Shown here piece by piece: positions 10,198 to 53,730 of a stretch of DNA of 64,000 nt (the stretch's first letter is position 1; each line of letters starts with the position of its first letter). A program made the translations under genes and the position numbers. The DNA is from an uncultured Gammaproteobacteria bacterium (lineage in GTDB: Bacteria; Patescibacteriota; Microgenomatia; Levybacterales; UBA12049), in contig CAZAZU010000003.1 of NCBI GenBank assembly GCA_964490105.1, forward strand, positions 245-64,244, given 5' to 3'. Under the pieces are notes generated by a model. That model made no database searches. It was not told where the DNA came from and saw only the letters and a program-made list of their open reading frames with translations.

Positions 10198-10242
10198 AGA
10201 GTTAGCGTAACAAAGAGAGATTTAAAAAACAAGGGGAATAGA

Positions 10243-10668: not shown

Positions 10669-10722
10669 TAGTAATATGATCGTATGAGGTTTTGAATTGT
10701 TTGTCAAGAGGTAAATTCGAGG

Positions 10723-11178: not shown

Positions 11179-11179
11179 A

Positions 11180-12097: not shown

Positions 12098-12140
12098 AAC
12101 TTTATCGTAGGTAAAACTTAGAGGAATTGCAAGAAAGGGG

Positions 12141-12489
12141 TTATCTAAATCCAGGTAGTCCCAGAATATCACGGGTTATTAATTCAAGTAAAGCTAAGGA
12201 GAATATTATGAACAGAAGTCCAACTATCGCTGCGGTTAGTTGATCTCTGGCATTCTTAACTTTCTCAGGATCTCCCTGGGAAGTCATCAGCTTATATCCT
12301 GCAATAATTATGATTATTATTACTATTCCTCCGGAAATGCTTAAAACAAACCCAAGCATCCATCTGGTAAATCCAGCTGAATCTGTTCTCACAAATCCGA
12401 TTGCTGTTTTAATCTTTGTACACCCCTTAGCATCTGTATATGATGATCCATTCTTAGCACAAGGAAGGGAGAGAGGGTCATTTTGTTGA
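12141..12489. repeat. 349-bp direct repeat, copy B (3' end of pilin paralog 5 plus the junction)
   Basis: Appears identical to 11180-11528. The copies are 961 bp apart. Confidence 0.85.
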
Positions 12490-18749: not shown

Positions 18750-20351
18750 CTATCCTCCAAGAAGTTGACTGATGATTCTTCCTCGCTGTCTGTGTTTTGC
18801 ATCTAAGCTCATTGGGTCATGTTGAATAGCAGCGGCACCTTTAAGTCCTCCTCTAATTGCGCCACCAGCAGCTGCGGTAGGCTGGAAAACAGGGCCGTAA
18901 TTAACATTTGGAGCTTTAATAGCGCCTCTAGTAATTTGAAGTACGTGAGGTGTCATAAATAAGAATCCTAAAGCTATCACACCAGCAAATATTTGGCTGG
19001 AGTCCCCGGTTCCTCCACCTACAAGGGGCGGGATAAATAAGGTTCCAGTCTCGATTGTGTTTTGTGGATCTGATGCAATATCGCTGAATACTTTTCCTAA
19101 GATAAACATAGACATAGCAGTAGGGAATACGGCCAGATTAGCAAGCATATCCTTAAACCAGGGGCTTACGCCAGTGGAAGAGCCTGGGAACAGGCCAATT
19201 AAGATCCAGAACGGTGCAAAAACGATATCTAATAAGATGTTTATGTACGCAGTTATTAATATAATCCATAGGCGAATTGCAGTATAAATTAAAGCCAAAA
19301 ATATAATTAAAGCTGAGGCTAAGCCCACTATTAAGCCTACTACTGCAGTAAATAGATTACCTACAAAATCAAAAAGACCAGGTTCAAAATTTACGCTCCC
19401 GCGTCCGCTAGGAGATCCATTTAGAGCGTTCATAACTAAATTTCTCATTGTGTCAGATCCCTGAAGTGCTAATTCAGGAAATCCTCCCCCAAATCCCGCT
19501 CCTAAGTCATCGCTTGGGTCACCTGGCCAAAGTCTGTTAATTGCATCAAATGGGGTAGGGGATGTAGTTATTTGTCCTAAGTTGCCGATCTCATGTCCCG
19601 GAATGTTGGCTAGTACACCGCCAACTAGATATAAGGCTACGTACATAACATCTATCAGAAGTCCTGCTATTGCAAAAGAAAAAGTGACCAGTATTATTCC
19701 CGTAATAATTCTAGGAATCTGGTTTTCTATGGTCATTACTGTGCGGGGGTCAATATGAACACGGAACATGATAGCTAGACCAATTAATACAAAAATAATA
19801 ACGAAGAGTAAGTAGGCTATATTTCTCATAGCCACCCAGATCTCTAGAAGCGGTCTAATTCCGCAAAACCCTACTCCCTGTACTGCTCCGGCACACTCTC
19901 CTGCCCGCGGTTCTTGAGCGTATGTGTTTTTGGCTATACCGAAATTGCCGGCTAGGTAATTAATGTATTGACCTGAGCTTGTAGGAGGTGTAAATGTGGC
20001 GGCAATCAGTGTGCCCATTACGCCTAATGCCCCTCCGCCATTTTCTACGAAACCTATCCTCCCTGTTACAGGATCAACTCCTAAGCATCTATGATCTTGT
20101 CTAATTGGATCAAAACCGCCAAGCTGACAAACAGTTGCAGCCATAAGTTCAATTACTGTGCTTTGTACGTATGTGCGCTGGTCCTTTGGTACATCAGAAT
20201 TGAGGCCGGTGGTATTCTTTTCTGTTTTTATAATATCGCTATTTTTTACCTCCGTAGTTATAGATGCTTGCGCAAAAGAATTTTTAGTAAAAAGAAAGAA
20301 AAGTGAGCCTAAAAAGACAAATAAAATTAATACTCGGGCAGAGAGCTTCAT
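18750..20351 (-). CDS. Polytopic membrane protein; candidate VirB6/TrbL-like T4SS channel component
   Basis: Signal peptide, then at least six hydrophobic helices across 533 aa with a periplasmic loop after the signal. Lies near the VirB4 cluster. Assignment rests on topology alone. Confidence 0.4.
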   Translation of the reverse strand: MKLSARVLILFVFLGSLFFLFTKNSFAQASITTEVKNSDIIKTEKNTTGLNSDVPKDQRTYVQSTVIELMAATVCQLGGFDPIRQDHRCLGVDPVTGRIGFVENGGGALGVMGTLIAATFTPPTSSGQYINYLAGNFGIAKNTYAQEPRAGECAGAVQGVGFCGIRPLLEIWVAMRNIAYLLFVIIFVLIGLAIMFRVHIDPRTVMTIENQIPRIITGIILVTFSFAIAGLLIDVMYVALYLVGGVLANIPGHEIGNLGQITTSPTPFDAINRLWPGDPSDDLGAGFGGGFPELALQGSDTMRNLVMNALNGSPSGRGSVNFEPGLFDFVGNLFTAVVGLIVGLASALIIFLALIYTAIRLWIILITAYINILLDIVFAPFWILIGLFPGSSTGVSPWFKDMLANLAVFPTAMSMFILGKVFSDIASDPQNTIETGTLFIPPLVGGGTGDSSQIFAGVIALGFLFMTPHVLQITRGAIKAPNVNYGPVFQPTAAAGGAIRGGLKGAAAIQHDPMSLDAKHRQRGRIISQLLGG

Positions 20352-20534: not shown

Positions 20535-22082
20535 TTATCTTCTTGGGGTGGTGCCTTCTAGGGTACCCTCTTTTATGGTTTTGCCAGTTTGATTTGTAGT
20601 AGTTATTACTGATGAAATGAGAGCAATTTTTAGGAAATCCAAGAGAATCCTTTTGCGTTTTTCTTTATTTATGGTGGCATAATGTAATCTTGCAGCTTCA
20701 TATCTAAGCCTAGCTTCTTTAAGTGCTTGTGGAGAGGCACCATTTTCTTGCAAATTTCTATATTCTGTTTTTGCTTCATCTCTAATCTCTTTCGCGCCAT
20801 CAGCCATACTTCTTAGAACTTTACTATATTCTGTTTTGGTATTTTTAGCTCGAGCTTTAGCTCTGGTAAAAATCCCTTTATAGGTTTTATCTCTTTTTGC
20901 AATTAAATCTTTTAGGGCTTTTCCGGCTTCAGCCAAAGCCTGTGGAGTTTCGCGCCCAGCATTAACGCTATCTTTAGCCTGGATAAAAGCTGCACTTATC
21001 ACTAAACCCTCTTCATTATTCATCGCATCCTCTAATGCCAATTGGGCTTTATATATTCTTTCATCTGATGCTTTTCCAGATGTTAGCTCGTCTAGGTTTG
21101 CTTTTGCCGGCGTAATAAGCGAAAACAAAGGTGGTTCTTCTTTTGCTTCTTCTGTTGCCGCAATAATTTCACTTACTAATTCCTCGTCCACTGTTTCCTC
21201 AGGTTCTTGCGCAGGTATATCAGTATCAGCTGGGGGCTCAACAGGAGCACTGGGTAATTCAGTGGCTGCTGAAGCCAGCTCTGGGTCAATTACCTCACCA
21301 TCCGTAGCCGCAGGGGTAGGCTCACTAGTTTCAATACTCGAAACGTTATTCCCTAAATGTCTCTCTGAAAGGGTTTCTCCGTTTTCCCCTTGGTACTTTC
21401 TTGTATCGTATACGCTCATTCCTATCCTAGGAGTTAAGCTAGCCTTTTTTACAACTATTGGTTTTCCATTCTCATAAACTACCAAATATAGATTGTTAGG
21501 GTTAGTCACGGATTCAAGATTTGCTATGGAGACCGCAGAGTCATCTGCTTGTCTTTCTACTATGTATGATTGGAGAGGGCTACCTTCGATTTGCACTGCT
21601 TCAAGAACTCGCTGAGCTTCTTCAGCGTTTAAGTCCATAAATACGGTAATTCCTTGTTTTTCATGTTGCTCACCTGTCTCTGTTTTAAATCTTGTTGTTT
21701 TTCCATCGGAATCATATGTATAAACTGAGCCATGGTCTGTGGTAAAAGATTTTATGCGCGATCCATTTTCAGCTCGAGGTGGCTCTGCGGACGTTACTTT
21801 AGGCTCCACTTTTCCATCTGGTTCTAGCTTTTTTGGAGTAGGGAGGCCTGCGGCATCAGCTAAGGCTGCATCAACTCTGGGAGGATTTGCAGTTAAATCT
21901 GCTTCAATAGTTCCGGCAAGCACATTATTAGCGGCTACAACACTTGCATCTGGTGGTTTTGGTACAGAGGGAGCAATAGGAGGCCTTGCTGCTTCTGAAG
22001 GTCTTGGTGTTCCATCTGGCATACTTGGTATTACGCTCATATGTTCTATCATAAGTCTAGATTTATAAGCTCTTTTTGTCAA
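20535..22082 (-). CDS. Hypothetical protein with Ala/Pro-rich N-terminal half and coiled-coil C-terminus
   Basis: 515 aa, compositionally GC-richer than its surroundings. No TM segment or signal peptide. Confidence 0.45.
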   Translation of the reverse strand: MTKRAYKSRLMIEHMSVIPSMPDGTPRPSEAARPPIAPSVPKPPDASVVAANNVLAGTIEADLTANPPRVDAALADAAGLPTPKKLEPDGKVEPKVTSAEPPRAENGSRIKSFTTDHGSVYTYDSDGKTTRFKTETGEQHEKQGITVFMDLNAEEAQRVLEAVQIEGSPLQSYIVERQADDSAVSIANLESVTNPNNLYLVVYENGKPIVVKKASLTPRIGMSVYDTRKYQGENGETLSERHLGNNVSSIETSEPTPAATDGEVIDPELASAATELPSAPVEPPADTDIPAQEPEETVDEELVSEIIAATEEAKEEPPLFSLITPAKANLDELTSGKASDERIYKAQLALEDAMNNEEGLVISAAFIQAKDSVNAGRETPQALAEAGKALKDLIAKRDKTYKGIFTRAKARAKNTKTEYSKVLRSMADGAKEIRDEAKTEYRNLQENGASPQALKEARLRYEAARLHYATINKEKRKRILLDFLKIALISSVITTTNQTGKTIKEGTLEGTTPRR

Positions 22083-23808: not shown

Positions 23809-23812
23809 AATG

Positions 23813-23885
23813 CGCGCCTGGCGGGAATCGAACCCACAACCTCAAGATCCGCAATCTTGCGCTCTATCCGTTGAGCTACAAGCGC
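23813..23885 (-). tRNA. tRNA-Arg with apparent GCG anticodon
   Basis: Reverse complement GCGCTTGTAGCTCAACGGATAGAGCGCAAGATTGCGGATCTTGAGGTTGTGGGTTCGATTCCCGCCAGGCGCG. Anticodon stem CAAGA/TCTTG, loop TTGCGGA. Confidence 0.65.
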
Positions 23886-24893: not shown

Positions 24894-24969
24894 ATTAATT
24901 TAGGTATAATCCCATTTTAATTATTAGTCAACTATTATTAAATGTATCAGTCTTATTGTTTTATCAAAG

Positions 24970-25054
24970 CGGAGGAGGAGAGATTCGAACTCTCGAAATC
25001 TTGCGATTTGGCGGTTTAGTAAACCGCTGCACTAGGCCACTATGCGACTCCTCC
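24970..25054 (-). tRNA. Class II tRNA (Ser-like) with apparent anticodon ACU
   Basis: Reverse complement GGAGGAGTCGCATAGTGGCCTAGTGCAGCGGTTTACTAAACCGC + 17-nt variable arm + GAGAGTTCGAATCTCTC + CTCCTCC. Canonical 5-bp stem GCGGT/ACCGC gives loop TTACTAA. Identity uncertain. Confidence 0.55.
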
Positions 25055-25064
25055 TTTAGCTACT

Positions 25065-25154
25065 TGGCGGAGGGTACAGGATTCGAACCTGCGTGAGTCT
25101 TACGACTCAGGGATTTAGCAAACCCCCGCAATGGACCAACTATGCGAACCCTCC
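25065..25154 (-). tRNA. tRNA-Ser(GCU), class II, CCA encoded
   Basis: Reverse complement GGAGGGTTCGCATAGTTGGTCCATTGCGGGGGTTTGCTAAATCCC...GGTTCGAATCC...GCCA. Anticodon loop TTGCTAA. Confidence 0.8.
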
Positions 25155-28248: not shown

Positions 28249-30183
28249 TTAGTTTATGTCGATTTTATAGACTTTACTATTTGAGAGAACAAAGATTGCG
28301 TTATCAGCCTCATTAACGTCAATGTCTGTTGCGCTTTTTAATACACTTGCCTGATAAGACTTAATGAATTTTCCTTCTTTATCCAGGACTACAATTCTAG
28401 AGTTTCCGTTGTCTAAAACATAAATATTGTCGAAATCTTCACCTGTAATAATTCGGGTGGGGGAGGACATTTCTTTGTCAATTCCGCTTACTTCAAAATC
28501 ATCTTCAGCGCCTCTTGTGTACTTATTGATTGAACCGTTATTAAATAGTACATAGATTGACCCATCAATCGCCAAGCTAGTAGCATCTGAGAGGTCTACT
28601 TCTTCTGTCAGATAATCGCTTTCTGTGTAATCGTCTTTGCCTGGTACAAATTTAGAAATTCCAGCTTCTTTATCCAAAACGTAAATATTAGATCCGAATA
28701 CTCCAATTCCCGAAGCTGTTTCCCAGCTTTTATCAAATAAAGATTCCTTAGAATCATTCCCTTTATCAACTGAATTAGCTCCTTTGTCATCTAAGAAATA
28801 AACGAAGTCCTCATTTTGAGTAAAATGAGTTGCATCTGGATTGTCTATCTCTATAGAAAGAAGTTTGCTTTCTGATTTATCAACTTCAGCCGCCGATATT
28901 CCACCTTGTCCGTCGCCGGTAATTTCGTTATTTACTTTGGTTAAAAGTTCTTCGATTTGATTGTCTTCATCAGACCCTTCTTTGAATGTGTCTTTATTTT
29001 TATCTAATAAGTTTTTGGCTGTCCTAAAACTTTCTTGAGCGAGCGATGCATTTAGGTCTTTTAGATTCAGCCCTTCATCGTATTTTTCCTGTGCTTCGTT
29101 AAATATTCCTGCAAATTTTTCTTGGGAGCCTTGGTTTTGTCTATTTATGAGCGCAAGGGCTCCGCTAATTACAATTACTGCAATTAAAACAATTGCAATT
29201 GTTAATATGATTTTTCTTGAATGCCCCAAATTTCCTGGTAATTTTTTAAGAAATCCTAAGCTAAAACCCATGGACATCTTTCTTCTTCTCGTTGGAATTT
29301 GATCTGCTAAGAAGGGGGAAGGGGTTTCAGCAGGCGCAGGCTGTTCAGGGATTGGTTGGTTAGATCCAATTAATGTTTCTGTTGATTCGTTAAATCCTGT
29401 TTCTGACTTTTCTAGATTTTCGGTTGGTTGTTCAATTGCTTCTTCATCGCTTTTTTCTAAGTTTTGCTCATCAGTTTCTACATCTGAATCCCTCTCGATA
29501 TCCTCTTCAGTAGCTGCTTCAGTGTGAGCTTCAGATTCTGATTCATCCACTGGAAGCGCAGCTTGGGATAGTTCTTGAGCGTTTAACTTTTTATATAGAA
29601 GAATTACGGCTGAAGCAGCGCCTTCTGTTTTTTCATGAAGATGGGGTGCGAGGTTTTCGGAGATTTCATCTGGAGTATTATTGTCCAGTGCTGAAGCGAG
29701 AGTTGCAGACTGTATAACTTTTGTAAATGATTTAGTCTGCAAGACTATAATGTCACCTTCCTGAACGTAACCAGACGCTGATTTAATAGCAAGTTCTTCG
29801 CTTGCTTCAAGAACTGTTCCGATTTTTTCTCCTCTTTTGAGAATTGCTTTTCCGCCTCCTGTTGCAAATAGATAAAGAACGTTTTCGTTTAAATAGCAGA
29901 TTACAAATGAAAGCTTTATCCCTGTTTTTACCCTTTCTGCCGTAGTATTTACAGCCTGTTTGATTGACTCTAAATCTTTATTTTCTAGAGTAAAAAATTC
30001 ACTTTCTAAAGTAGAAATTAGATCTTTACCTAATGAGTTTAAGTGTTCTTCGCCTTCCTGGGGAGTAGTATCGGTCTGGAGGGACAATGCAGCAAAGAGT
30101 CGGCCTGCGCTATATGCCTGAGACCAAGCCGTAGGCGTAGGTGTTGCTACTACTTTACTAAATGCTAGATTTGTTTCTGCCAT
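28249..30183 (-). CDS. Membrane protein: N-terminal cytoplasmic domain, single TM, coiled coil, C-terminal beta-propeller-like repeats
   Basis: TM helice IILTIAIVLIAVIVISGALALI. C-terminal repeated IYVLD/IFVL blocks. Acidic low-complexity linker. Confidence 0.4.
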   Translation of the reverse strand: MAETNLAFSKVVATPTPTAWSQAYSAGRLFAALSLQTDTTPQEGEEHLNSLGKDLISTLESEFFTLENKDLESIKQAVNTTAERVKTGIKLSFVICYLNENVLYLFATGGGKAILKRGEKIGTVLEASEELAIKSASGYVQEGDIIVLQTKSFTKVIQSATLASALDNNTPDEISENLAPHLHEKTEGAASAVILLYKKLNAQELSQAALPVDESESEAHTEAATEEDIERDSDVETDEQNLEKSDEEAIEQPTENLEKSETGFNESTETLIGSNQPIPEQPAPAETPSPFLADQIPTRRRKMSMGFSLGFLKKLPGNLGHSRKIILTIAIVLIAVIVISGALALINRQNQGSQEKFAGIFNEAQEKYDEGLNLKDLNASLAQESFRTAKNLLDKNKDTFKEGSDEDNQIEELLTKVNNEITGDGQGGISAAEVDKSESKLLSIEIDNPDATHFTQNEDFVYFLDDKGANSVDKGNDSKESLFDKSWETASGIGVFGSNIYVLDKEAGISKFVPGKDDYTESDYLTEEVDLSDATSLAIDGSIYVLFNNGSINKYTRGAEDDFEVSGIDKEMSSPTRIITGEDFDNIYVLDNGNSRIVVLDKEGKFIKSYQASVLKSATDIDVNEADNAIFVLSNSKVYKIDIN

Positions 30184-42492: not shown

Positions 42493-42942
42493 ATGAAATG
42501 TCCATATTGCGGTTCCCGCGAAACAGAAGTAGTAGAAACCAGAGACAGTGAAGATCTTGAGACAATAAGAAGAAGACGAAATTGTGTTAAGTGCGAGAAG
42601 AGATTCACGACTTATGAAAGAGTAGAGAATGTTAATCTGGTAGTTATTAAAAAAGATGGACGACGAGAACAGTTTAATAGAGATAAACTAAGAAACGGAA
42701 TTTCTAGATCCTGCGAAAAGACTACGGTATCAGTTGAAGACATTGAGAAGATAATAGTAGAAGTAGAAAGAGAATTAAGAGGAGCAGACTCGGTAGAAGT
42801 AGAAAGTAAAAAAATAGGGCAAATGGTGGCTGGAAGACTAAAGAAATTAGATAAAATTGCATATATAAGATTTTCGAGTGTATTCAAAAGATTTGTAGAC
42901 ATAGAAGACTTTGAAAAAGAAGTCAAAAAATTAATAAATTAA
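42493..42942 (+). CDS. nrdR: Transcriptional repressor NrdR
   Basis: MKCPYCGSRETEVVETRDSED...RRRRNCVKCEKRFTTYERVE zinc ribbon plus ATP-cone. Confidence 0.9.
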   Translation: MKCPYCGSRETEVVETRDSEDLETIRRRRNCVKCEKRFTTYERVENVNLVVIKKDGRREQFNRDKLRNGISRSCEKTTVSVEDIEKIIVEVERELRGADSVEVESKKIGQMVAGRLKKLDKIAYIRFSSVFKRFVDIEDFEKEVKKLIN

Positions 42943-42945
42943 ATT

Positions 42946-45357
42946 ATGAAATTAGACGGTGTAAGACAAAAAGTATTTTTAGACAGATATTCTTTAAAAG
43001 ATAAAGAAGGAAATCCCATGGAACAAACTCCAGATGAGATGTGGAGAAGAGTTGCTAAGGGAATTGCAGGACAGGAAAAGAAGGCTGACCAGAAGCATTG
43101 GGAGAAGAAATTCTATGATTCGATGGAAGGATTTAAGTTTCTTCCAGGGGGACGCATTTTAGCTGGCGCTGGAACTGGATTTGATGTCACATATTTTAAC
43201 TGCTTTGTTATCCCATCTCCAAAAGATTCCAGGGATGGAATTTTAGATAATCTTAAGATAATGATTGAAATCATGGCAAGGGGCGGAGGAGTAGGAATCA
43301 ATCTATCAAGTCTTCGTCCAAAGGGTTCTCGCGTTCGAAAAGTAAATGGTTTTTCATCTGGCCCTATGAATTGGGCAGAGCTTTATTCACTAGCCACAAA
43401 AGACATTGTTCAGCAGGGAGGATCTCGAAGGGGAGCTCTTATGCTCATGCTTCATGATTGGCATCCAGACATCGAAGAATTTATTACTGTAAAACAGGAC
43501 CTAACTCGCATTAACGGTGCTAACCTTTCAGTTTGCGTAAGTGACGCATTCATGGAAGCTGTAAAAGCAGACGCTGACTGGGATTTGGAATATCCAGATC
43601 TGGATGACCCTAAGTATGATGAAAAATGGAATGGAGACCTTGAAGGCTGGAAAAAGCTTGGAGGAAAAGTCGTAGTTAAAAAAACAGTTAAAGCAAAATA
43701 TCTTTGGGATTTAATTTGTACAGCTGCTTGGACTTCAGCAGAGCCAGGTCTTCACTTCCTTGACCGCTCAAACAAAAGATCAAACACAGCATATTTTGAA
43801 ACTCTAATCGCTACTAACCCATGCGGAGAACAGCCCCTTGGAGCTTGGGCAGTTTGTAATTTAGGAGCTATGAATTTGTCTGCTTATGTAAATGAAAAAG
43901 GTGAGTTTGAATACACGAGATTTGGAAAAGATGTAAGAGTTGCGATGAGATTTTTAGATAATGTGATTGATGACACATACTACTTCTTTAAAGAGAATGA
44001 AAAAGTTGCAAAAGATATTAGAAGGACTGGTCTTGGAATTCTAGGATTAGCTGATGCTTTAATAAAAATGAAGTTAAAGTATGGAGCTCCTGAATCAGAA
44101 GCGACTATTAAAAAGATTTTCGAAACTTTAAGAAATGAAGCTTATGATGCATCAGCTGATATCGCAAAAGAGAAAGGCGCTTTTCCTAAATTTAACAAAG
44201 AAAAATATCTAAAGGGATACCACATTCAAAGACTTCCTAAGGAAATTCAAGCAAAGATTGCAAAAAATGGAATTAGAAATGCTGTTCTACTCACAATTGC
44301 TCCAACAGGAACCACAAGTTTGATTTCTGGAGTTTCTTCTGGGGTAGAGCCAGTTTATGAGTTTGAGTTTATCAGGCGAGATAGGCTAGGGGAGCACAAA
44401 ATGTATCACCCTCTATATGAAGAGTGGAAAAAAGCCAATCCTGACGCCGAGAAACCTGGATACTTTGTTAGTGCAAATGATTTAACTCCAGAAGAGCACG
44501 TGACGGTTCAGGCAATTGCTCAGGAGTATATTGATTCTTCAATATCTAAAACTGTTAATGCTCCAAATGCTCATACTGTCGACGACGTAAAAAATCTCTA
44601 CATGTCAGCATATGACAATGGGCTTAAGGGCGTAACTTATATGAGGGATGGAAGTCGCGAGGGAGTTCTATCCAGAGTAGAAGAGAAGAAAGAAGAAGTA
44701 AAAGTTCCGGATGTAGCTAACCACACAGTAAGAGCACCCCGTCCTATGATGATGGAAGGAGTAACGTATAAGACTCAAACTCCAGTCGGGGATACCTACA
44801 TCACTCTTAATCATGATCAGAACAGAGAGCCATTTGAGATGTTTATAACTATCGGAAAAACAGGTTCTGATGTCGCAGCTATGGCTGAAGCATTGGGGCG
44901 CATGATTTCTCTTAATTTAAGTCTCGCAGGCAACCTGCCGCCGCGCGAGAGAATTAGACAAGTTATAAGTCAGCTGTCCGGAATAGGAGGAGCAAGAAGT
45001 GTGGGATTTGGAGAAAATAGAGTCAGATCTCTTCCTGATGCTGTTGCAAAAATATTAGCAAAGCAATATGCATTTAAAGTAAACGGTGTAGTAGAGGACA
45101 AATTAGTTCCGCCTTCAACTGCAAATGGTCATTCGGAAACACAGATCCCATTAACTGCAGATGCTCCGGTTGAGGAAAAATCTGAGCCACAGGAGGAAAT
45201 ATCAGTTCTTCAGCAGCTTCCTCTTCAAGAAGGAATCACAATTGACACAAAACCGAAGACTCACAACTTTGATATTTGCCCAGAATGCGGAACTTCAGCT
45301 TTTGTATTCGAAGAGGGATGCGGTAAGTGTTACGCTTGCGGTCATTCTGAATGCTAG
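42946..45357 (+). CDS. nrdJ: Class II (adenosylcobalamin-dependent) ribonucleotide reductase NrdJ
   Basis: 803-aa monomeric RNR with active-site NPCGEQPL and C-terminal Cys cluster CPECG...CGKCYACG. Not class Ia (no R2 gene) and not class III. Confidence 0.8.
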   Translation: MKLDGVRQKVFLDRYSLKDKEGNPMEQTPDEMWRRVAKGIAGQEKKADQKHWEKKFYDSMEGFKFLPGGRILAGAGTGFDVTYFNCFVIPSPKDSRDGILDNLKIMIEIMARGGGVGINLSSLRPKGSRVRKVNGFSSGPMNWAELYSLATKDIVQQGGSRRGALMLMLHDWHPDIEEFITVKQDLTRINGANLSVCVSDAFMEAVKADADWDLEYPDLDDPKYDEKWNGDLEGWKKLGGKVVVKKTVKAKYLWDLICTAAWTSAEPGLHFLDRSNKRSNTAYFETLIATNPCGEQPLGAWAVCNLGAMNLSAYVNEKGEFEYTRFGKDVRVAMRFLDNVIDDTYYFFKENEKVAKDIRRTGLGILGLADALIKMKLKYGAPESEATIKKIFETLRNEAYDASADIAKEKGAFPKFNKEKYLKGYHIQRLPKEIQAKIAKNGIRNAVLLTIAPTGTTSLISGVSSGVEPVYEFEFIRRDRLGEHKMYHPLYEEWKKANPDAEKPGYFVSANDLTPEEHVTVQAIAQEYIDSSISKTVNAPNAHTVDDVKNLYMSAYDNGLKGVTYMRDGSREGVLSRVEEKKEEVKVPDVANHTVRAPRPMMMEGVTYKTQTPVGDTYITLNHDQNREPFEMFITIGKTGSDVAAMAEALGRMISLNLSLAGNLPPRERIRQVISQLSGIGGARSVGFGENRVRSLPDAVAKILAKQYAFKVNGVVEDKLVPPSTANGHSETQIPLTADAPVEEKSEPQEEISVLQQLPLQEGITIDTKPKTHNFDICPECGTSAFVFEEGCGKCYACGHSEC

Positions 45358-45390
45358 TTTGTAAAGCAAGAGCTAATAGTTTATAGTTAT

Positions 45391-45530
45391 TTTCAATAAG
45401 GAAAGGGTAAGTGAGGCGTAAATCCTCCACAGTGCCGCTACCGTAAAGTCCCGATTTAATCGGGATAAAGTCGGAAAACCACCTTATGTAGATTCTCGAG
45501 CAAGATTTTTTGGCGAACTTCTCGAGATCC
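45391..45530 (+). promoter_or_regulatory. Candidate cobalamin (AdoCbl) riboswitch
   Basis: AAGGAAAGGGTAAGTGAGGCGTAAATCC...CCACAGTGCCGC...AAAGTCGGAAAACCACC carries GGGAA/AATCC and a B12-box-like AGTC.GGA.ACC. Followed by the CTCGAG...CTCGAG hairpin and RBS GAGGAG. Downstream genes are B12-related. Confidence 0.45.
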
Positions 45531-45555
45531 TTACAGGATAACGAGGAGTTTTTTT

Positions 45556-45963
45556 ATGGCAAAGAAATTAAAAATTATTTTAGGAATCTTTCTACTTCTA
45601 TTAGTTTCGTTTTTAATTTTATTTTTTAAATTTTATCAAGATGAAATGGAATGGTATAGCCGTAATGGTTTGGTCCCGGTTAAGAATTCTACGATTACAT
45701 CTACTGATATGCCGGTTAAGACAGAAACACATGTTTCATATTACGGAGCCGAAGGGAAGAATGCTCTAGAATTATTGGGGGAATATGAGCAATTTGAACA
45801 AGCATCCTCAGGATTGGTTATTTCTATAAATGGAAGAAGAGCTGAGGAAAAAAATAGAGAGTTTTGGGCTTTTTATATCAATGGGAAAACAGCAACTTTA
45901 GGGCCTGAAGATTACGTTACAAAGAAAGGAGATTTGATTGAATGGAAAATAGAAGAATATTAA
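45556..45963 (+). CDS. DUF4430-like surface protein; candidate cobalamin-binding component
   Basis: N-terminal TM/signal. C-terminus YINGKTATLGPEDYVTKKGDLIEWKIEEY resembles the DUF4430 ending (...dGD.i.w.y). Confidence 0.45.
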   Translation: MAKKLKIILGIFLLLLVSFLILFFKFYQDEMEWYSRNGLVPVKNSTITSTDMPVKTETHVSYYGAEGKNALELLGEYEQFEQASSGLVISINGRRAEEKNREFWAFYINGKTATLGPEDYVTKKGDLIEWKIEEY

Positions 45964-46493
45964 ATTTTGAAAAATTACTTTTACCTTTAATAATCATTGT
46001 ATTTGGAGCAACTTTAAGGCTAATCCCGCACCCTGCAAATGTAGCGCCAATTGCTGCGATAGCTATTTTTGGAGGTGTATATCTTAATAAAAAATATGCT
46101 TTGGTTTTGCCGATTTTGGCTATGATTGTTTCAGATATTTTTTTGGGATTTAGTGTAAGTACGCCGCTTGTATATGCAAGCTTTCTTATTTCAGGGGTAA
46201 TTGGTTTATGGTTAAAAAATCACAAACATTTACCTTTAGTAATAGGCGCAACACTAGCTTCATCGATAATCTTTTTTCTGTTAACAAATTTTAATTTTTG
46301 GTACGTGACATCTTTATATCCAAAGACATTCGATGGAATGATTCAGGCATATTTTATGGCGTTGCCATTTTTCAGGAACACAGTAATCGGAGATTTAATT
46401 TACGTAGGTTTGTTTTTTGCAAGCTTTGAAGTGATATTAAAATTATCAAAGGAGTTCTATGGCAGGACCAATTTATACAAAAACAGGGGATAA
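45942..46493 (+). CDS. Small polytopic membrane protein; candidate substrate-capture component for the corrinoid
   Basis: 183 aa, about 5 TM helices. Overlaps both neighbours inside the riboswitch-controlled unit. Confidence 0.35.
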   Translation: MENRRILNFEKLLLPLIIIVFGATLRLIPHPANVAPIAAIAIFGGVYLNKKYALVLPILAMIVSDIFLGFSVSTPLVYASFLISGVIGLWLKNHKHLPLVIGATLASSIIFFLLTNFNFWYVTSLYPKTFDGMIQAYFMALPFFRNTVIGDLIYVGLFFASFEVILKLSKEFYGRTNLYKNRG

Positions 46494-46998
46494 GGGAAAA
46501 ACCTCATTATTTGATGGTAAGAGAGTTTTAAAATCAGATAAAAAAGTTGAGACTTACGGCACGATTGATGAGTTGAACTCTGCGATTGGTGTAGCTTCAG
46601 CTTTTATTAAGATAGCCTCAGTAAATAAGGAGTTAGAGGAAATTCAAAATGATCTTTTAGAAATCGGTTCGTCGCTGGCTGTTTCTTCTACATTACCAGC
46701 TCCGCAGATTGCAAATCGTCCTAAAGAGTTTGAAGTTTTAATTGATAAATTGACTAAAGAAATGCCACCTCTTAGTCAATTTATTTTGCCGGGCGGTGGA
46801 AAGGGCGGATCTCTTATTCATGTTGCACGTACGATAGCTAGGAGGGCTGAAAGACGTATCGTAGATTTAAATAGAACTGAAGAGATAGACAATACTATTA
46901 TTGTTTATTTAAACCGTTTATCAGATTTATTGTTTACCATTGCCAGATTTGTAAATTACAAAGAAAAGAAAAAAGAAAAAATCTGGAGGAAAAAATGA
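46459..46998 (+). CDS. PduO-type ATP:cob(I)alamin adenosyltransferase
   Basis: [40 protein letters not shown] matches the PduO/MMAB N-terminal consensus (IYTRTGD.G.TSL..G.RV.K...R..AYG..DELNS). Confidence 0.75.
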   Translation: [179 protein letters not shown]

Positions 46999-48386
46999 GC
47001 CCTGATGTTAAGCCGTTGATTCCAGATTTGTCTCGTGAAATAGCGAACAGAAAATATTCACATGCTGACAGAAGAATAAACGGGAGCTTAGCGACAGTTG
47101 TTTTGGTAAATTCATTAGTAGGTGTTCCGTCTGTAACTCCAGCTGATATAAATATTTCACTTGGCGCTCCAGTTGGAGTGGTTGAAGCTAGCTTAGGTGA
47201 TTATCAAAAGCCTGATTTGAAAACAGTTGTAATCTTCGATCAGGGTTTACGATTTCCGCCTTCAAACACACCTGGTATAACAAGCGAAATAGAGGCTCCA
47301 ATTTTTGCTACCAAAGAAGCAGGTTCTGATCCAAGTAAGCGTGCTGCTGCATACGACTTTAATTTAGATGTTATTGCGAGAGAAAGTATAAAAAGTGTTG
47401 AAGATCCTGTGCTTAGACAGCTAAAGTTAGAGGAGCAAAAAAGATATGTTAAAACTCAAGTTGAAACTCTTTTGGGAGAAAAAATGCATGTTCTTTTGAG
47501 AATTACCCGATATGACATTAAGGATGGAAAGTTTTACGGAGAAGATATGCCTGGTCCTGCAATCGAGTCTTTTAAAAGAGGAAGGGATCACAGGAGATTG
47601 CATGGAAATTCCGTAGATCATAAAAGAGAAGATGCAGAGATAGATGGAATCGAATTAATTGAATCAAGAATGGCAGAGGTTGAAATTGGAGATGAGGAGT
47701 TTTTTGCTTCCCCTCCAGGAGGAACTTATCCTGGGAATTTTTACGATATTGCAACAAAAAAAGTAGATGAGAGAGGGGAATATGTGGAATTTAGGCGATA
47801 TAGTTCAGGTTTAAGTTATGAAGAATACAGAGATTTTTACAGAGAAATGGGTGCTGAAACTCCCGATGATCCATCTGACGCATTTTTCTTGAGTACTCCG
47901 ATTCAAATTAAAGATTCTAGGTTTCAGGATGCAGACGCTTTGCACGCATATTTACATCGAGATCATGAGTATATGGAAAGAGAAGAGTTTGATCAAATCA
48001 TGCGCTTCTCAAGTGGAGTAGTAGAAAATTATGCTGCAAATCCTACTCTTTTTAACCTTAGAGCGGCGATTAATAAGGCTGATGAGGTAAGAAAAATGCG
48101 TAAAGAAGGGATAGAAGTTGTCATGAGTTACAGTGCTATTGATCTTAATCGAGAAATTATGGCTCTAGGTTCTCAAAAGGTAGACATAGAAAACCTGCCC
48201 TGCGGCAACCTGAATTTAAATGAAGCTGATGGACCGGCTGATACAGTAAGTGCATTTGACAGGAGTTATGAATTTGATGCAGTGGGAGCTTGCGTATCAT
48301 GTGGCAGGGAGGGTATGCTCGGCCCATGTGGATTGTGTGAGCCGTGTGATGCAAAAGCACGAAGAGATCAGAAAAAACTCAAATAG
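46995..48386 (+). CDS. Hypothetical protein with C-terminal Cys cluster, translationally coupled to the adenosyltransferase
   Basis: 463 aa. ATGA overlap with the upstream gene. C-terminal CVSCGREGMLGPCGLCEPC. Confidence 0.4.
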   Translation: MSPDVKPLIPDLSREIANRKYSHADRRINGSLATVVLVNSLVGVPSVTPADINISLGAPVGVVEASLGDYQKPDLKTVVIFDQGLRFPPSNTPGITSEIEAPIFATKEAGSDPSKRAAAYDFNLDVIARESIKSVEDPVLRQLKLEEQKRYVKTQVETLLGEKMHVLLRITRYDIKDGKFYGEDMPGPAIESFKRGRDHRRLHGNSVDHKREDAEIDGIELIESRMAEVEIGDEEFFASPPGGTYPGNFYDIATKKVDERGEYVEFRRYSSGLSYEEYRDFYREMGAETPDDPSDAFFLSTPIQIKDSRFQDADALHAYLHRDHEYMEREEFDQIMRFSSGVVENYAANPTLFNLRAAINKADEVRKMRKEGIEVVMSYSAIDLNREIMALGSQKVDIENLPCGNLNLNEADGPADTVSAFDRSYEFDAVGACVSCGREGMLGPCGLCEPCDAKARRDQKKLK

Positions 48387-48447
48387 CTGTTAGTTTTTTG
48401 TAATGATTATTTCAAGCCCCAGAGCTTTATTGTGATAATATAGTTAT

Positions 48448-48816
48448 ATGAATGAAGATCAAAATTTGATACCTAAAATTCCTGCCGCGCCAGTTCCATC
48501 TGAAGCAGAAAAGCTAGCTAGAGCTGAAATTGCGCAAGCTGATGACTTCACACAGGCAACACATCAACTGCCTGTGATTGCAGATGAGCTTTCGACGTTT
48601 ATAAAGCCAGTAGCTCAACCCGAGCATTCGCTTGAGGGAACAGGTGCGATGCAAACTCCCGCAAAGCTCTCTACGGTAGATGGATCTGGAATTAGTTTAC
48701 CTGATGGTTTTGGTACACCTGAAGCTGCAATCGCTGCAACAAAAGGAAAAGCTACTGAAGGATCAACGGGTGCTGGTTTAGTATACGAAAGACAAATAGA
48801 AAGAAAGGCAGCTTAA
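48448..48816 (+). CDS. Hypothetical small protein
   Basis: 122-aa ORF lying 2 nt upstream of the coupling-ATPase gene. Confidence 0.3.
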   Translation: MNEDQNLIPKIPAAPVPSEAEKLARAEIAQADDFTQATHQLPVIADELSTFIKPVAQPEHSLEGTGAMQTPAKLSTVDGSGISLPDGFGTPEAAIAATKGKATEGSTGAGLVYERQIERKAA

Positions 48817-48818
48817 CT

Positions 48819-51179
48819 ATGATAGGAAATCCTTTCGCATTAATGTTTAACCTCATGTTGGCCATATTAATTCTTGGCCTTCTTTCTGCTGTAATCGGGG
48901 GGATCAGTTATTTGCTAGCTCTTAGATATAAATTTAGAAATAGAGAAAAAGCTTCTCTTGATTCAACTTTACTCCAGATTGCACTGCCACGTGACAACGA
49001 GATAAAAATTGATGCTGCAGAGCAATTGTTTGCAAGCTTTGCCTCATTACACAAGAGCGGAAAACCACAATGGCTAGTAGATCAGCCGGTTCTTTCTTTT
49101 GAAATCGTTGGAATGCCTGGAGATATTAGATTTTTTGTTTCTGTCCCAAATAAATATAAAGATTTTGTGGAAAAACAGATTAACGGAGCCTATCCTGATG
49201 CTGAAATAAAAGAAGTTACTGAAAAAACCTCTTTAAAAGAAGGGTTTGTGGTCGGAAATGATTACAATATTTTCGGAGAAAATTCTAAAGTGGCATTTGC
49301 TCAGTTAGGGCTAAAGAAATCTAATTATGAGCCAATTAAAACTTATAAAGAATTTGCTGTAGATCCGCTTTCGACCATCACTTCAGTATTAGCGAAAATG
49401 ACAGAAGGGGAGGGAGCAGCTATACAAATTCTTGTTTCTCCGGCTGAATCAGGATGGAAGAAGTTAGGTAAAGATCACGTCTCTCATACTAAGAAAGAAG
49501 AGGCAAATCCTGAAACCGCTAAGTATTCAGTGGATGCAAAAGAACTTGAGTCAATTGAATCAAAAGTCAGTAAGCCCGGATTTAATACAGTTATTAGGTT
49601 AGTTGTTGCGTCATCAACTAAGGAAACAGCTGAAGCTCATTTAAGTAATATTAAAAATGCTTTTAGTCAGTTTAATGGTCATAATTCTTTCACAAAAGTT
49701 TCGGTTAAAAGACAAAAAGCATTTATGGATGATTTTATATACAGATATCATCAGAGACGCGGTGCTCCTTCAATTCTTAGTTCTGAAGAACTAGCTACAA
49801 TTTTTCATTTTCCAAATAAGTCTGTGTCGACCCCGCATATTTACTGGGTTAGTTCTAAAAGAGCACCAGTTGCCGCACATGTTCCAACAACCGGTCTTTT
49901 CTTAGGGAAGAGCGTTTATCGTGGATTATCACGGGATGTTTATGTAGAGAGGGATGATAGAAGAAGACATACTTATATTATCGGAAAAACCGGAACCGGA
50001 AAAACAGAATTTTTAAAACAAATGATTCTTCAGGATATAAAAAACGGAGAGGGAGTAGGAGTAGTAGATCCTCATGGAGATCTTATTGAAGATATATTGC
50101 AAATGATTCCTCCAGAGCGCGCAGAGGACGTAATTTTATTTGACCCTTCAGATACAAGCAGACCAATGGGACTTAATATGTTAGAAGCTGATACTGAAGA
50201 AGAAAAGCACTACGTTGTTTCTTCTATAGTGGGGCTTATGTATAAGCTTTATGATCCGAATAAAACTGGTATTATCGGACCCCGTTTTGAGCACGCGATT
50301 CGTAACGCGATGCTTACAGTTATGAGTAGAAAAGGAAGCACATTTATCGAGGTCGTTCGCGTTCTAACTGATGCAAATTTTGTTCAGGAACTTCTTCCTC
50401 ACGTTCAGGATCCAATTGTTAGACGTTACTGGACAGATCAGATTGCACAGACTTCAGACTTCCATAAGTCAGAGGTTTTGGATTACATCGTTTCAAAGTT
50501 CGGCCGTTTCGTTACAAATAAAACTATGAGAAATATTATTGGCCAATCTGAATCGGCATTTAACATGAAGTATGTAATGGACAATCAGAAGATTCTTCTT
50601 ATAAATCTCTCAAAAGGAAAGATTGGAGAAGAGAACTCAAGCTTCTTAGGTTTGATTCTTGTCCCAAAGATTCTAATTGCAGCTATGAGCAGGCAGAATA
50701 TGCCGATGGAGCAAAGAAAAGACTTTTTTCTCTACGTTGACGAGTTCCAGAATTTTGCTACCCCTGACTTTGCCCAGATTTTATCAGAAGCACGAAAATA
50801 TCGTTTGGATTTAATTGTGGCAAATCAATTTATAGGGCAAATGGAAGAAGAAGTTAAAAATGCTATTTTTGGAAACGTAGGTACACTGGCTGCTTTCCGT
50901 GTAGGAGTAACTGATGCAAATTATCTTCAACACGAATTTCAGCCTACATTTTCAGAAGCAGATCTTATAAACATTGATCGTTTCAATTGTTATATGAGAA
51001 CTGTAGTAAACGGTGAGCCAGTTCCTCCATTTTCTCTTGATACCACAAAAGATATGGAACAAGAGCAAGCTGCTAAGAATCCAAGAGTTGCAGAATTAAT
51101 AAAAGAATTATCAAGGTTAAAGTATGGAAAAGATGTGAACGTAATAGAGCAGGTAATAGGTCAACGCGCCCAACTATAA
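48819..51179 (+). CDS. VirD4/TraG/TrwB-like type IV coupling protein (FtsK/HerA-superfamily ATPase) with N-terminal TM anchor
   Basis: Two N-terminal TM helices. Walker A IIGKTGTGKTEF. Walker B FFLYVDEFQNF followed by R..LDLIVANQFIGQM (T4CP-like pattern DE...R...Q...Q). Confidence 0.6.
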   Translation: MIGNPFALMFNLMLAILILGLLSAVIGGISYLLALRYKFRNREKASLDSTLLQIALPRDNEIKIDAAEQLFASFASLHKSGKPQWLVDQPVLSFEIVGMPGDIRFFVSVPNKYKDFVEKQINGAYPDAEIKEVTEKTSLKEGFVVGNDYNIFGENSKVAFAQLGLKKSNYEPIKTYKEFAVDPLSTITSVLAKMTEGEGAAIQILVSPAESGWKKLGKDHVSHTKKEEANPETAKYSVDAKELESIESKVSKPGFNTVIRLVVASSTKETAEAHLSNIKNAFSQFNGHNSFTKVSVKRQKAFMDDFIYRYHQRRGAPSILSSEELATIFHFPNKSVSTPHIYWVSSKRAPVAAHVPTTGLFLGKSVYRGLSRDVYVERDDRRRHTYIIGKTGTGKTEFLKQMILQDIKNGEGVGVVDPHGDLIEDILQMIPPERAEDVILFDPSDTSRPMGLNMLEADTEEEKHYVVSSIVGLMYKLYDPNKTGIIGPRFEHAIRNAMLTVMSRKGSTFIEVVRVLTDANFVQELLPHVQDPIVRRYWTDQIAQTSDFHKSEVLDYIVSKFGRFVTNKTMRNIIGQSESAFNMKYVMDNQKILLINLSKGKIGEENSSFLGLILVPKILIAAMSRQNMPMEQRKDFFLYVDEFQNFATPDFAQILSEARKYRLDLIVANQFIGQMEEEVKNAIFGNVGTLAAFRVGVTDANYLQHEFQPTFSEADLINIDRFNCYMRTVVNGEPVPPFSLDTTKDMEQEQAAKNPRVAELIKELSRLKYGKDVNVIEQVIGQRAQL

Positions 51180-51184
51180 TGATG

Positions 51185-51256
51185 TGGGCTAGCTTGGGAT
51201 CGAACCAAGGACATCTACTTTATAAGAGTAGCGCTCTACCACTGAGCTACTAGCCC
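51185..51256 (-). tRNA. tRNA-Ile with UAU anticodon
   Basis: Reverse complement GGGCTAGTAGCTCAGTGGTAGAGCGCTACTCTTATAAAGTAGATGTCCTTGGTTCGATCCCAAGCTAGCCCA. Anticodon loop CTTATAA. Confidence 0.75.
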
Positions 51257-51306
51257 GAATGGAGAGTATTATAACATTTCCAACCTGAAATTTGCCTGGG
51301 GTTAAA

Positions 51307-52167
51307 TTAAAGCTCTGAGAGGACTTGGGATTCTGAGGCTCTATCCGGAACGTATTCTAAGTATCTTTCTGTAGTAGATAATCTCTTGTGACCTAATATT
51401 TTTGAAAGTAAAACAATTGAAGCTCCATGTTTTAAGTGATGAGCCACAAAAGTATGTCTTAAATCATTTACCTTCGCATTTTTAATCTCAGCTAATCTAA
51501 AGTATCTTTCAACTGAAGTTCTAATGTTTCTAATTAAGAAGGGCTTTCCTGATTTAGTAATAAACAAATGATCTTCTGTTACTTTTGGACGAATATCCAG
51601 ATACCTTTTTAAGGCTTCCTGAGCCCTTTTATTAAGGGGAACTAGGCGTTCGCCGTGTTTCTCCATTGCCGGGATATGAAGTGAGTCTTTTTGAATGTCT
51701 GAAAGACGTAGTGCTGTTAATTCTCCGATTCTGATACCTGTTTGAAGTAATAATTCAATAATTGCCGACATTCTAGCATCATTTCTAGCTGCATCACGTA
51801 GCGCTCTATATTCAGTTGGAGTTAAGATTCTAGGAGGAGCAAGCTGATATTTAGGATGTGCGACTAATAGAGAAGGGTCATCAGTGATGAATTCATTGAT
51901 TTTTAAAAACCTATAAAAAGTTCTCGTAGAATTAATTTTTCTGGAAATTGACTTAGGAGTGTAGCCGTCGTTATTCATTTTAGCTAAGAAAGCTTCAATG
52001 TCTTCCTTAGAGACATCATGAACATGCTGTCTTTCAAGCTCATTTAAGAAGCCAACAAGCTGCTCGATGTCTTTTCCGTATGCTACAATTGTAGAGGTCG
52101 AATGACCTTTATCTTTTAAAAAACTTTTGAACTGCGAACTGGCATCAGCGAGTTTTATTTGATTCAT
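51307..52167 (-). CDS. Tyrosine recombinase, XerC/XerD-like
   Basis: SAM-like N-terminal domain. C-terminal ...LRHTFVAHHLKHGASIVLLSKILGHKRLSTTERYLEY (R...HxxR...Y). Confidence 0.7.
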   Translation of the reverse strand: MNQIKLADASSQFKSFLKDKGHSTSTIVAYGKDIEQLVGFLNELERQHVHDVSKEDIEAFLAKMNNDGYTPKSISRKINSTRTFYRFLKINEFITDDPSLLVAHPKYQLAPPRILTPTEYRALRDAARNDARMSAIIELLLQTGIRIGELTALRLSDIQKDSLHIPAMEKHGERLVPLNKRAQEALKRYLDIRPKVTEDHLFITKSGKPFLIRNIRTSVERYFRLAEIKNAKVNDLRHTFVAHHLKHGASIVLLSKILGHKRLSTTERYLEYVPDRASESQVLSEL

Positions 52168-52207
52168 AATGGCCTATAATATCACAGTTCTGAGCTCGTA
52201 GTCAACT

Positions 52208-53376: not shown

Positions 53377-53451
53377 TGGTGGCGGCGGCGGGGTTCGAAC
53401 CTGCGACCATTGCCTTATGAAGACACCGCTCTACCACTGAGCTACGCCGCC
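53377..53451 (-). tRNA. tRNA with CAU anticodon (elongator Met or Ile2-lysidine type), CCA encoded
   Basis: Reverse complement GGCGGCGTAGCTCAGTGGTAGAGCGGTGTCTTCATAAGGCAATGGTCGCAGGTTCGAACCCCGCCGCCGCCACCA. Loop TTCATAA. One mismatch each in the anticodon stem and the T stem. Confidence 0.65.
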
Positions 53452-53625: not shown

Positions 53626-53730
53626 ACGCGCGGGGTAGTGTACAGTGCACGTGAGGCTCATAATCTCACAGGCTAGGCGCAACTCCTAGCCCCGCAACAC
53701 AGTCTAGGCTCGCAATTGCGAGCCTATTTT
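53626..53730 (+). ncRNA. Candidate small structured RNA (about 105 nt) of unknown family, bracketed by a promoter and a terminator
   Basis: GC-richer than its surroundings. Internal hairpins GTGAG...CTCAC and GGCTAGG-cgcaact-CCTAGCC. Terminator AGGCTCGC-aatt-GCGAGCCT + ATTTTAT at 53705-53730. Confidence 0.4.

Follow-up and report, generated by a model that had tools for sequence, protein, structure and literature searches.

Genes and features of the ATPase locus

The DNA analysed here is a 64-kb stretch (the window, always meant at its full length) from a Levybacteria-like member of Patescibacteria, the candidate phyla radiation (CPR). The gene under study in it encodes an ATPase of the type IV coupling protein (T4CP) family, and four features make up its locus. 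A small open reading frame (ORF) of 122 aa, taken from the ORF list (48448..48816, + strand), is followed by the ATPase gene (48819..51179, +), which encodes a membrane-anchored protein of 786 aa with the precomputed Pfam architecture DUF8128, TrwB_AAD_bind and TraG-D_C. Downstream are a tRNA-Ile gene with the anticodon UAU (51184..51256, −), called by ARAGORN and by the Rfam model RF00005 (73.9 bits against a threshold of 29), and the gene of a Xer-type tyrosine recombinase of 286 aa, in which a SAM-like core-binding domain is joined to a catalytic domain (51307..52167, −). The first-pass annotation of this DNA had described a VirD4-like coupling ATPase starting at 48448, with a tRNA-Ile(UAU) gene and an oppositely oriented recombinase downstream. 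The start was misplaced, as 48448 belongs to the separate 122-aa ORF and the ATPase begins at 48819. The tRNA call was confirmed by both programs. The recombinase is indeed opposite to the ATPase, but the tRNA is on the minus strand as well, so the recombinase does not lie on its 3' (att) side.

The ATPase is a T4CP-type motor that carries a module like the N-terminal domain of VirB4 behind a single transmembrane (TM) anchor. Its Walker A motif, GKTGTGKT (residues 389-396; 49983..50006, +), and its Walker B motif, FLYVDE (residues 637-642; 50727..50744, +), are both present, as had been claimed. G389, G392, G394 and K395 of the former and Y639, D641 and E642 of the latter are invariant in an alignment (A3) of 26 sequences that reaches down to 33% identity. 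The Pfam family TrwB_AAD_bind matched residues 379-678 with 36.8 bits (cut-off 20.5), and TraG-D_C scored 25.9 bits (cut-off 22). The best NCBIfam matches were all T4CP models, namely TraD variants and the CD1115 VirD4-like model (residues 365-691). The VirB4 model TIGR00929 reached 19 bits against a cut-off of 643 and no VirB4-type Pfam family matched the ATPase, whereas models of this type do match the protein encoded at 5748-7724. FtsK_SpoIIIE (PF01580) remained below threshold, with 16.4 bits against a cut-off of 24 over a span of 22 residues. When the sequence alone was compared with solved structures, TrwB and DotL were the best relatives. A profile of the ATPase family, searched against PDB, gave TrwB (4e-7) and DotL (5e-6) better E-values than HerA (at least 2e-3), and both FtsK and VirB4 were absent from its matches. 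The description as a VirD4-like coupling ATPase is thus borne out by the Pfam models and the profile ranking, as well as by two results described below, the modelled fold and a full-length homolog encoded among plasmid conjugation genes.

The AlphaFold 2 (AF2) model of the full-length protein, built from a diverse alignment, reached a pLDDT of 86.6 and a pTM of 0.76. A single TM helix is predicted at the N-terminus (residues ~6-36; 48834..48926, +). It is the sole hydrophobic segment on the Kyte-Doolittle scale and appears as one helix in the AF2 model (residues 5-47), so the N-terminal TM pair reported at first pass is replaced by one TM anchor. The basic stretch RYKFRNREK follows this helix, which suggests that the C-terminal side of the ATPase is cytoplasmic. 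An N-terminal alpha/beta domain, DUF8128, comes next (residues ~49-330; 48963..49808, +), and AF2 and Foldseek predict for it a fold like that of the VirB4 N-terminal domain, not a HAS-barrel as in HerA-type helicases. When this domain was modelled separately (AF2 pLDDT 89.4), its top 14 Foldseek matches were all TrwK/VirB4 (E 6e-10 to 2e-5, TMq 0.43-0.55), and the matches that came next were unrelated folds with E 1.5e-3. The likeness exists at the fold level alone, as a profile of the domain had no sequence-level similarity to the genome's own VirB4 or to the adjoining gene. The P-loop motor (residues ~360-745; 49896..51053, +), delimited by Pfam, Foldseek and AF2, resembles that of TrwB in having an all-alpha insertion (residues ~460-574) that separates Walker A from Walker B. 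The predicted motor matched TrwB in Foldseek with TMt 0.62-0.67 and a root-mean-square deviation (rmsd) of about 5 Å, much better than the rmsd of 16-18 Å for superposition on VirB4 or HerA. The model ends in two short helices, and no gamma-domain-like (winged-helix) C-terminus was seen.

The stop codon of the small ORF lies 2 nt before the ATPase ATG. The N-terminal part of its product is of low complexity or disordered, its C-terminus is a short basic, amphipathic helix, and the ORF at 48448-48816 has no family matches. Most related loci across the phylum have a co-directional ORF of 110-190 aa at position −1 of the ATPase, and these ORFs often end in a helix of the W-L-x6-L-K-K type. These features suggest that the small ORF encodes a fast-evolving partner of the ATPase and that the two genes are probably co-expressed. 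An extended −10-like box, TGTGATAAT (48431..48439, +), precedes the small ORF at a distance of 8 nt from its ATG. This box was read from the sequence and missed by a two-hexamer scan, and it might tentatively be taken as the promoter of the two-gene unit, with a leaderless or nearly leaderless start.

Conservation of the neighbourhood and the island question

Homologs of the ATPase are abundant in public databases, which already hold the exact window protein. A word-indexed search returned more than 7,800 homologs, and an exhaustive search gave 6,028 representatives at 50% identity with E<=1e-30. Identity to the window ATPase is 73-100% among the top 120 clusters; those that bear a name are called Levybacteria or Patescibacteria, and many lie on contigs of 0.4-1.1 Mb. 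Scanning one genome per species yielded 80 ATPase loci, and the counts given here run over 83 loci in all, which are designated by L numbers. The 80 species-level loci span most CPR lineages, namely the Microgenomates groups, Dojkabacteria, WWE3, Saccharibacteria, Berkelbacteria, the Parcubacteria groups and Peribacteria. The identity of the ATPase parallels that of the flanking housekeeping genes. The ATPase gene is a core, vertically inherited chromosomal gene.

The gene order of the window is kept in L001 (a contig of 1.08 Mb) and L003, where the ATPase is about 73% identical. In both, the order is NrdR, ribonucleotide reductase, CobAT, an uncharacterised protein of ~460 aa, another of ~130-170 aa, the ATPase, tRNA-Ile(UAU), Xer on the opposite strand, DivIC, MurD and TGT. 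A Xer gene follows the ATPase on the opposite strand in 19 of the 83 loci, down to 44% ATPase identity, and the succession of ATPase, Xer(−) and DivIC persists to the same level. The tRNA-Ile(UAU) gene follows the ATPase in 22 of the 83, some of them loci without Xer. Both the tRNA-Ile(UAU) gene and that of the Xer-type recombinase are housekeeping genes in their own right, and their proximity to the ATPase dates from before Microgenomates diversified. The neighbourhood is an ancestral gene order in a reduced genome.

The tRNA-Ile gene of the window is convergent with the ATPase gene, with 5 nt between its 3' end and the ATPase stop and with the 5' end facing the recombinase, while in 18 of the 22 loci it has the + orientation of the ATPase. 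An extended −10 box, TGTTATAAT (51268..51276, minus-strand reading), is located 11 nt upstream of the tRNA 5' end, and equivalent TGnTAnAAT boxes precede tRNA-Ile in relatives; L003-L007, L011, L019, L028 and L043 were compared for the orientation of tRNA and promoter. Judged by its sequence and position, TGTTATAAT is the putative promoter of the tRNA itself, inverted along with the gene. Because the same box precedes the inverted tRNA, promoter and tRNA have flipped as a unit in the window lineage. They are likewise inverted in L001/L002, L010 and L017, and no flanking inverted repeats that would explain the flip were found. The tRNA is kept in the slot downstream of the ATPase in L001, L003-L008, L010-L017, L019, L022, L028, L035, L041 and L043, that is, across Microgenomates and in some genomes labelled Dojkabacteria or Saccharibacteria. 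In most bacteria, the AUA codon is read by a lysidine-modified CAU tRNA made by TilS. The conserved tRNA-Ile(UAU), which reads AUA, suggests TilS-independent AUA decoding in these lineages.

The recombinase, at best a candidate member of XerC or XerD proper, has the profile of a core Xer-type enzyme and not of an element-borne integrase. Pfam assigned it Phage_integrase (103.5 bits) and the SAM-like N-terminal domain (57.6 bits). Among family models, XerD scored highest (179.5 bits), ahead of XerC (170.1 bits) and archaeal XerA (156.7 bits); none of the three reached its equivalog cut-off (329.6, 335 and 220, respectively). E. coli XerD (1a0p, 99 bits) is its best match in PDB, followed by XerA. 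Over 120 clusters of homologs, identity is 78-99% and the length almost always 286 aa, and many are on long contigs shared with the ATPase. R146, K170, R237, H260 and Y269 are invariant in 121 recombinase sequences. The His of the HxxR motif is replaced by Asn (N234, in NDLRH) in all 121 close homologs, which may be a clade signature of Levybacteria Xer. Synteny of the recombinase gene with divIC is conserved. A promoter-like site (TTGACT-18-TATTAT with TG, 10/12 matches; 52176..52205, −) was detected between the divergent genes xer and divIC by the two-hexamer scan; as a promoter it is only suggestive, in a scan that as a whole did not exceed chance.

tRNA genes beside tyrosine recombinases are typical island junctions, and on this ground the first-pass annotation had tentatively read the locus as a boundary or remnant of a genomic island or an integrative and conjugative element. 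According to this explanation, tRNA-Ile and the recombinase bound an integrated element that brought the coupling ATPase. The recombinase also matches PHROG integrase families, distant ATPase homologs occur on plasmids and in large Bacillus phages, and two relatives carry small selfish-looking cassettes between tRNA and xer, namely a GIY-YIG-like ORF (L004 12521-12802) and a PIN/antitoxin-like pair (L028 12305-12981). These cassettes indicate that the tRNA-xer slot tolerates small insertions, but the slot of the window holds none. What the gaps of the relatives encode is mostly ordinary, namely a Nudix-like protein, an MFS transporter, a protein like PBP2 and a surface protein, and none of these gaps contains an island with an integrase. 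Like the cassettes, these genes were identified by reading translated ORFs, with no family search behind them. The tRNA 3' end has no direct repeat within the 64-kb window: exact k-mers of at least 11 nt from its 3' half do not recur there, and its 3' 22-mer has no second copy with up to 3 mismatches. Around the recombinase, no att- or dif-like repeat or palindrome was found. The recombinase is on the 5' side of the tRNA and on the same strand, not beyond its 3' end. The composition around the ATPase, tRNA and recombinase is not deviant, with a GC content of 0.37-0.40 as in the flanks and tetranucleotide usage (z −0.1 to −1.4) matching the rest of the window. In addition, housekeeping genes lie on both flanks in an order shared with genomes at just 73% ATPase identity, the adjacency of tRNA and Xer spans several CPR classes, and the recombinase is a core, Xer-like protein of fixed length. 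If the gene was ever transferred from monoderm conjugative elements, this must have happened before the CPR radiation. An island origin is therefore very improbable. The first-pass annotation had itself pointed to the housekeeping XerD-like character of the recombinase and had named a chromosomal Xer and the lack of an att duplication as outcomes that would speak against its island; both are what was found, the latter within the 64-kb window. When the recombinase is Xer-like, adjacency of a tRNA and a recombinase alone is a poor predictor of an island.

Several neighbouring genes in the window deserve description. A cobalamin module (42493-46998) consists of NrdR, a ribonucleotide reductase (relatives of which have a TSCPD domain), a DUF4430 protein that is possibly B12-binding, a DUF6580 membrane protein and a PduO-type cobalamin adenosyltransferase. 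It suggests that B12 uptake and adenosylation are coupled to a B12-dependent ribonucleotide reductase. The adenosyltransferase stop overlaps the start of the following ORF (46995-46998). This ORF of 463 aa (46995-48386, +) encodes a Cys-rich, zinc-ribbon-like C-terminal tail and had zero matches across the family libraries. It has just 20 homologs among 5.8 billion proteins, every one of Levybacteria type, so it is a lineage-restricted orphan. It is 18-32% identical to its counterparts in L001 and L003, against ~73% for the ATPase. To the right of the recombinase are DivIC, a SAM-hydroxide-adenosyltransferase-like gene, two tRNA-Met calls, MurD and TGT. The tRNA-Met at 53377-53451 passes Rfam with 63.2 bits, while the neighbouring ARAGORN call of 70 nt, tRNA-Met(CAU) at 53629-53698 (+), is below the gathering score of the Rfam tRNA model. 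It has a counterpart on the same side in L001 and may be a divergent tRNA, possibly of initiator or Ile2 type. Elsewhere in the window, ARAGORN placed tRNA-Ser(ACU) and tRNA-Ser(GCU) side by side at 24969-25054 and 25065-25154. Ser tRNAs of bacteria do not usually carry an A34 anticodon. The ACU call is probably no artefact, as a tRNA-Ser(ACU) is found in L038 too, ~1 kb upstream of the ATPase there. A tRNA-Arg(GCG) at 23812-23885 is likewise uncommon.

The secretion system and the role of the ATPase

The gene dnaN is near the left end of the window (675-1790), which makes the window origin-proximal. Beside it is a block of type IV secretion system (T4SS) genes of the Gram-positive type on the minus strand, comprising an 840-aa protein without family match, VirB4, a 220-aa gene in the TrsD position, PrgI/VirB3 and five T4SS_pilin paralogs. 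The virB4 gene (5748-7724) is 41 kb from the ATPase gene. T4SS genes can be recognised as far as a pilin gene that ends at 13535, 35 kb from the ATPase gene. The ATPase had been described as lying about 29 kb from the VirB4 block; the large distance stands, but the figure is valid only when unannotated ORFs up to ~20 kb are counted into the block. Housekeeping genes lie in between: two class A penicillin-binding proteins, SpoIID, PGK, NrdR, ribonucleotide reductase, the DUF4430 and DUF6580 genes and the cobalamin adenosyltransferase.

Two further observations concern the T4SS block itself. The five consecutive pilins (VirB2-like; 9790-13535, −) include two with long N-terminal extensions (330 and 464 aa). 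With tetranucleotide z up to 2.5, no other stretch of the window deviates as much in composition, consistent with surface proteins that evolve fast. Large ORFs of 515-1258 aa without Pfam match (3223-5745, 14951-18727, 18750-20351, 20535-22082 and 28249-30183) flank or follow the block and may encode T4SS components (VirB6-like) or substrates.

By the most likely mechanism, the ATPase would form a membrane-bound hexameric NTPase. It would receive substrates and feed them to the origin-proximal, conjugation-derived T4SS 35-41 kb away, which would be made up of the VirB6-like protein, VirB4, the product of the TrsD-position gene, PrgI/VirB3 and the five VirB2-like pilins. Since no relaxase was detected among the window proteins, the cargo would more likely be protein than DNA. 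Functional coupling of the ATPase to this T4SS may hold or fail with about equal probability. The separation of the two loci has precedents in the phylum. According to PMC12102498, T4CP homologues occur in 2,918 and VirB4 in 2,417 of 3,035 Patescibacteria genomes, where the T4CP count pools two profiles, t4cp1 and the FtsK/TcpA-like t4cp2. Of 5,713 T4CP homologues, 148 were near virB4. The same study reports that the T4SS of Patescibacteria usually adjoins dnaA/dnaN, and the T4SS near dnaN in the window is in this setting.

Taken as a whole, the evidence is best explained by a chromosomal, vertically inherited T4CP of the VirD4/TrwB family, of the monoderm and archaeal kind, and this explanation is probable. 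Several observations weigh against it or against the coupling. The equivalog and subfamily T4CP models of NCBIfam matched the ATPase far under their cut-offs. Its N-terminal architecture, one TM helix and a VirB4-like domain, departs from the classical two-TM VirD4/TrwB. In Foldseek, the full-length model had its lowest E-values to TrwK/VirB4 (9e-17) and not to TrwB, because both domains align there. The relaxase is missing from the proteins of the window, and virB4 is within 10 kb of the ATPase in just one of the 83 loci. In Southlakia epibionticum (Se), the t4cp homologue was non-essential in transposon sequencing while other T4SS genes were essential, and exaptation was suggested (PMC12102498); the dispensable gene may or may not be the DUF8128 ortholog. 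According to Wang et al. (PMC10633639), neither a coupling protein nor a relaxase is recognisable in the Se T4SS.

Some of these observations would fit an exapted T4CP, a protein of conjugative descent that is now a T4SS-independent, membrane-bound translocase with a housekeeping role, for example DNA handling for chromosome resolution or division. The rarity of virB4 near the gene, the higher number of genomes with T4CP homologues than with VirB4 and the dispensable Southlakia gene beside an essential T4SS are all in line with it. Very strong conservation (at least 73% identity across many species), the ATPase-Xer(−)-DivIC order kept to 44% identity and the Parcubacteria copy, which lies between CysS and DnaX, are as well. 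However, the Xer adjacency is limited to Microgenomates and Dojkabacteria, is lost at many of their loci and may be inherited order; matches to t4cp1 and t4cp2 are pooled in the genome counts; and the Southlakia gene may or may not be the ortholog in question. The protein has neither an FtsK signal nor a gamma-domain-like C-terminus, and many CPR genomes have a separate FtsK/TcpA-type protein (t4cp2 rows in Table S3; ftsK is annotated in TM7x). Exaptation is therefore rather unlikely. A more specific form of it, in which the DUF8128-T4CP ATPase is, phylum-wide, a domesticated translocase that kept a VirB4-like docking domain and acquired a T4SS-independent essential role with its small partner, is still less probable, and so is its corollary that the architecture is a deep intermediate between VirB4 and VirD4. 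DNA handling tied to Xer-mediated chromosome resolution and division is one possibility for such a role, in view of the place that the gene has kept beside Xer in Microgenomates and Dojkabacteria. An FtsK analogue formed by the ATPase and the neighbouring Xer was also considered and found little support, given the lack of an FtsK signal, the separate FtsK-type proteins of CPR and the clade-limited adjacency.

A different identity, either a second, divergent VirB4-type ATPase or a HerA/DUF87-type helicase, could be argued from the full-length Foldseek E-values and from the N-terminal domain, which matches solely the VirB4 N-domain. DUF87 was narrowly above its Pfam cut-off (25.8 against 23.2), HerA structures are among the fold matches, and PADLOC gave a partial match to mad8 (69.9 bits). 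The DUF87 and HerA matches, however, are confined to the Walker A neighbourhood (residues 382-443 for DUF87). The VirB4 model falls short of its cut-off by a wide distance, the family profile has no VirB4 match in PDB, and the N-domain profile is unrelated to the genome's own VirB4 or its neighbour. The motor is placed much better on TrwB than on VirB4 or HerA, a genuine VirB4 is already encoded at 5748-7724, and no NurA-like or defence partner adjoins the gene. This identity is thus quite improbable. A grouping of the ATPase with HerA/DUF87 enzymes, named at first pass as an outcome that would speak against a coupling protein, was not observed, as TrwB ranked over HerA in the profile search.

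The distinction has consequences for work on these organisms. The Patescibacteria T4SS is essential for epibiotic growth in the one species tested. The description of the ATPase as a TrwB-like motor behind a VirB4-N-domain-like module and one TM helix, together with its partner ORF and its full-length homologs in monoderm and archaeal conjugation modules, provides defined constructs and interaction hypotheses with which T4SS feeding and repurposing can be compared.

Comparison with known systems

Outside CPR, the architecture of the ATPase holds the coupling-protein position in monoderm and archaeal conjugation modules. A tblastn search with the ATPase against plasmids gave 240 records, all below 32% identity, from Streptomyces, Bacillus, Clostridium, haloarchaea and Sulfolobus; in 22 records, the match extends over 80% or more of the query. 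Relatives are also found in large Bacillus phages, and phrog_5156 matched with 312 bits. On the Niallia sp. plasmid NZ_CP137637, the homolog WP_338473401.1 is full-length (hhalign probability 100%, E 1e-49, columns 73-738). It is encoded directly upstream of a replication-relaxation-family gene, which is followed by TcpE, a VirB4-like ATPase and conjugal transfer proteins. On the Natrinema plasmid NZ_CP101874, the homolog is beside a T4SS DNA-transfer protein and a pilin. The N-domain and motor regions of this homolog are annotated as two adjacent, overlapping ORFs of 399 aa and 1021 aa (L085 8764-13018), and this two-ORF state in haloarchaeal plasmids is either a natural split or a frameshift. 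The arrangement recalls TrsD, a free-standing protein like the VirB4 N-domain.

The Niallia and Natrinema proteins share full-length homology with the window ATPase, including the N-terminal domain, and occupy the T4CP position with a relaxase-family gene, TcpE and a VirB4-like ATPase nearby, as well as a pilin in the archaeal case. In contrast to the window ATPase, which is chromosomal and isolated, they are plasmid-borne in conjugation modules, and they are just 24-32% identical to it. The same monoderm and archaeal ancestry has been proposed for the Patescibacteria VirB4 (PMC12102498).

Among structurally characterised coupling proteins, TrwB of R388 (PDB 1e9r/1gki) and DotL/IcmO have in common with the ATPase the P-loop motor with Walker A and B, the all-alpha insertion, the TraG-D_C region and N-terminal membrane anchoring. 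TrwB differs in its two-TM N-terminal domain with a short periplasmic loop, where the ATPase has one TM helix and a VirB4-N-domain-like module of ~280 residues. VirD4/TrwB-type T4CPs are linked to relaxase and/or mating-pair formation (MPF) genes, whereas the ATPase is unlinked to either, core-chromosomal and highly conserved. VirB4 (TrwK of R388, PDB 7o43/8rtd) has the same two-domain plan of an N-terminal alpha/beta domain and a C-terminal motor, and the fold match of the N-domain is specific. VirB4/TrwK nevertheless has no detectable sequence-level relation to the ATPase, the motor of which is T4CP-like.

The recombinase resembles XerD, XerC and XerA in length, two-domain architecture and the R-K-R-H-Y residues, and as a chromosomal gene in conserved synteny. 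It differs from them in its sub-cut-off scores and the Asn in place of the HxxR His, and no dif site or FtsK partner was identified in the origin-proximal window.

The closest comparison is with the T4CP homologues of Quinonero-Coronel et al. 2025 (PMC12102498), which are VirD4-type proteins encoded far from a chromosomal, relaxase-less T4SS that is dnaA/dnaN-proximal and MPF-FATA-derived. The window is alike in these respects, and a T4CP homologue encoded away from the T4SS was thus already known at the phylum level. The window ATPase is presumed to correspond to their t4cp1. That study describes neither the domain architecture with its VirB4-like N-domain, nor the small partner encoded upstream, nor the deep synteny with tRNA-Ile and Xer; all three are new here.

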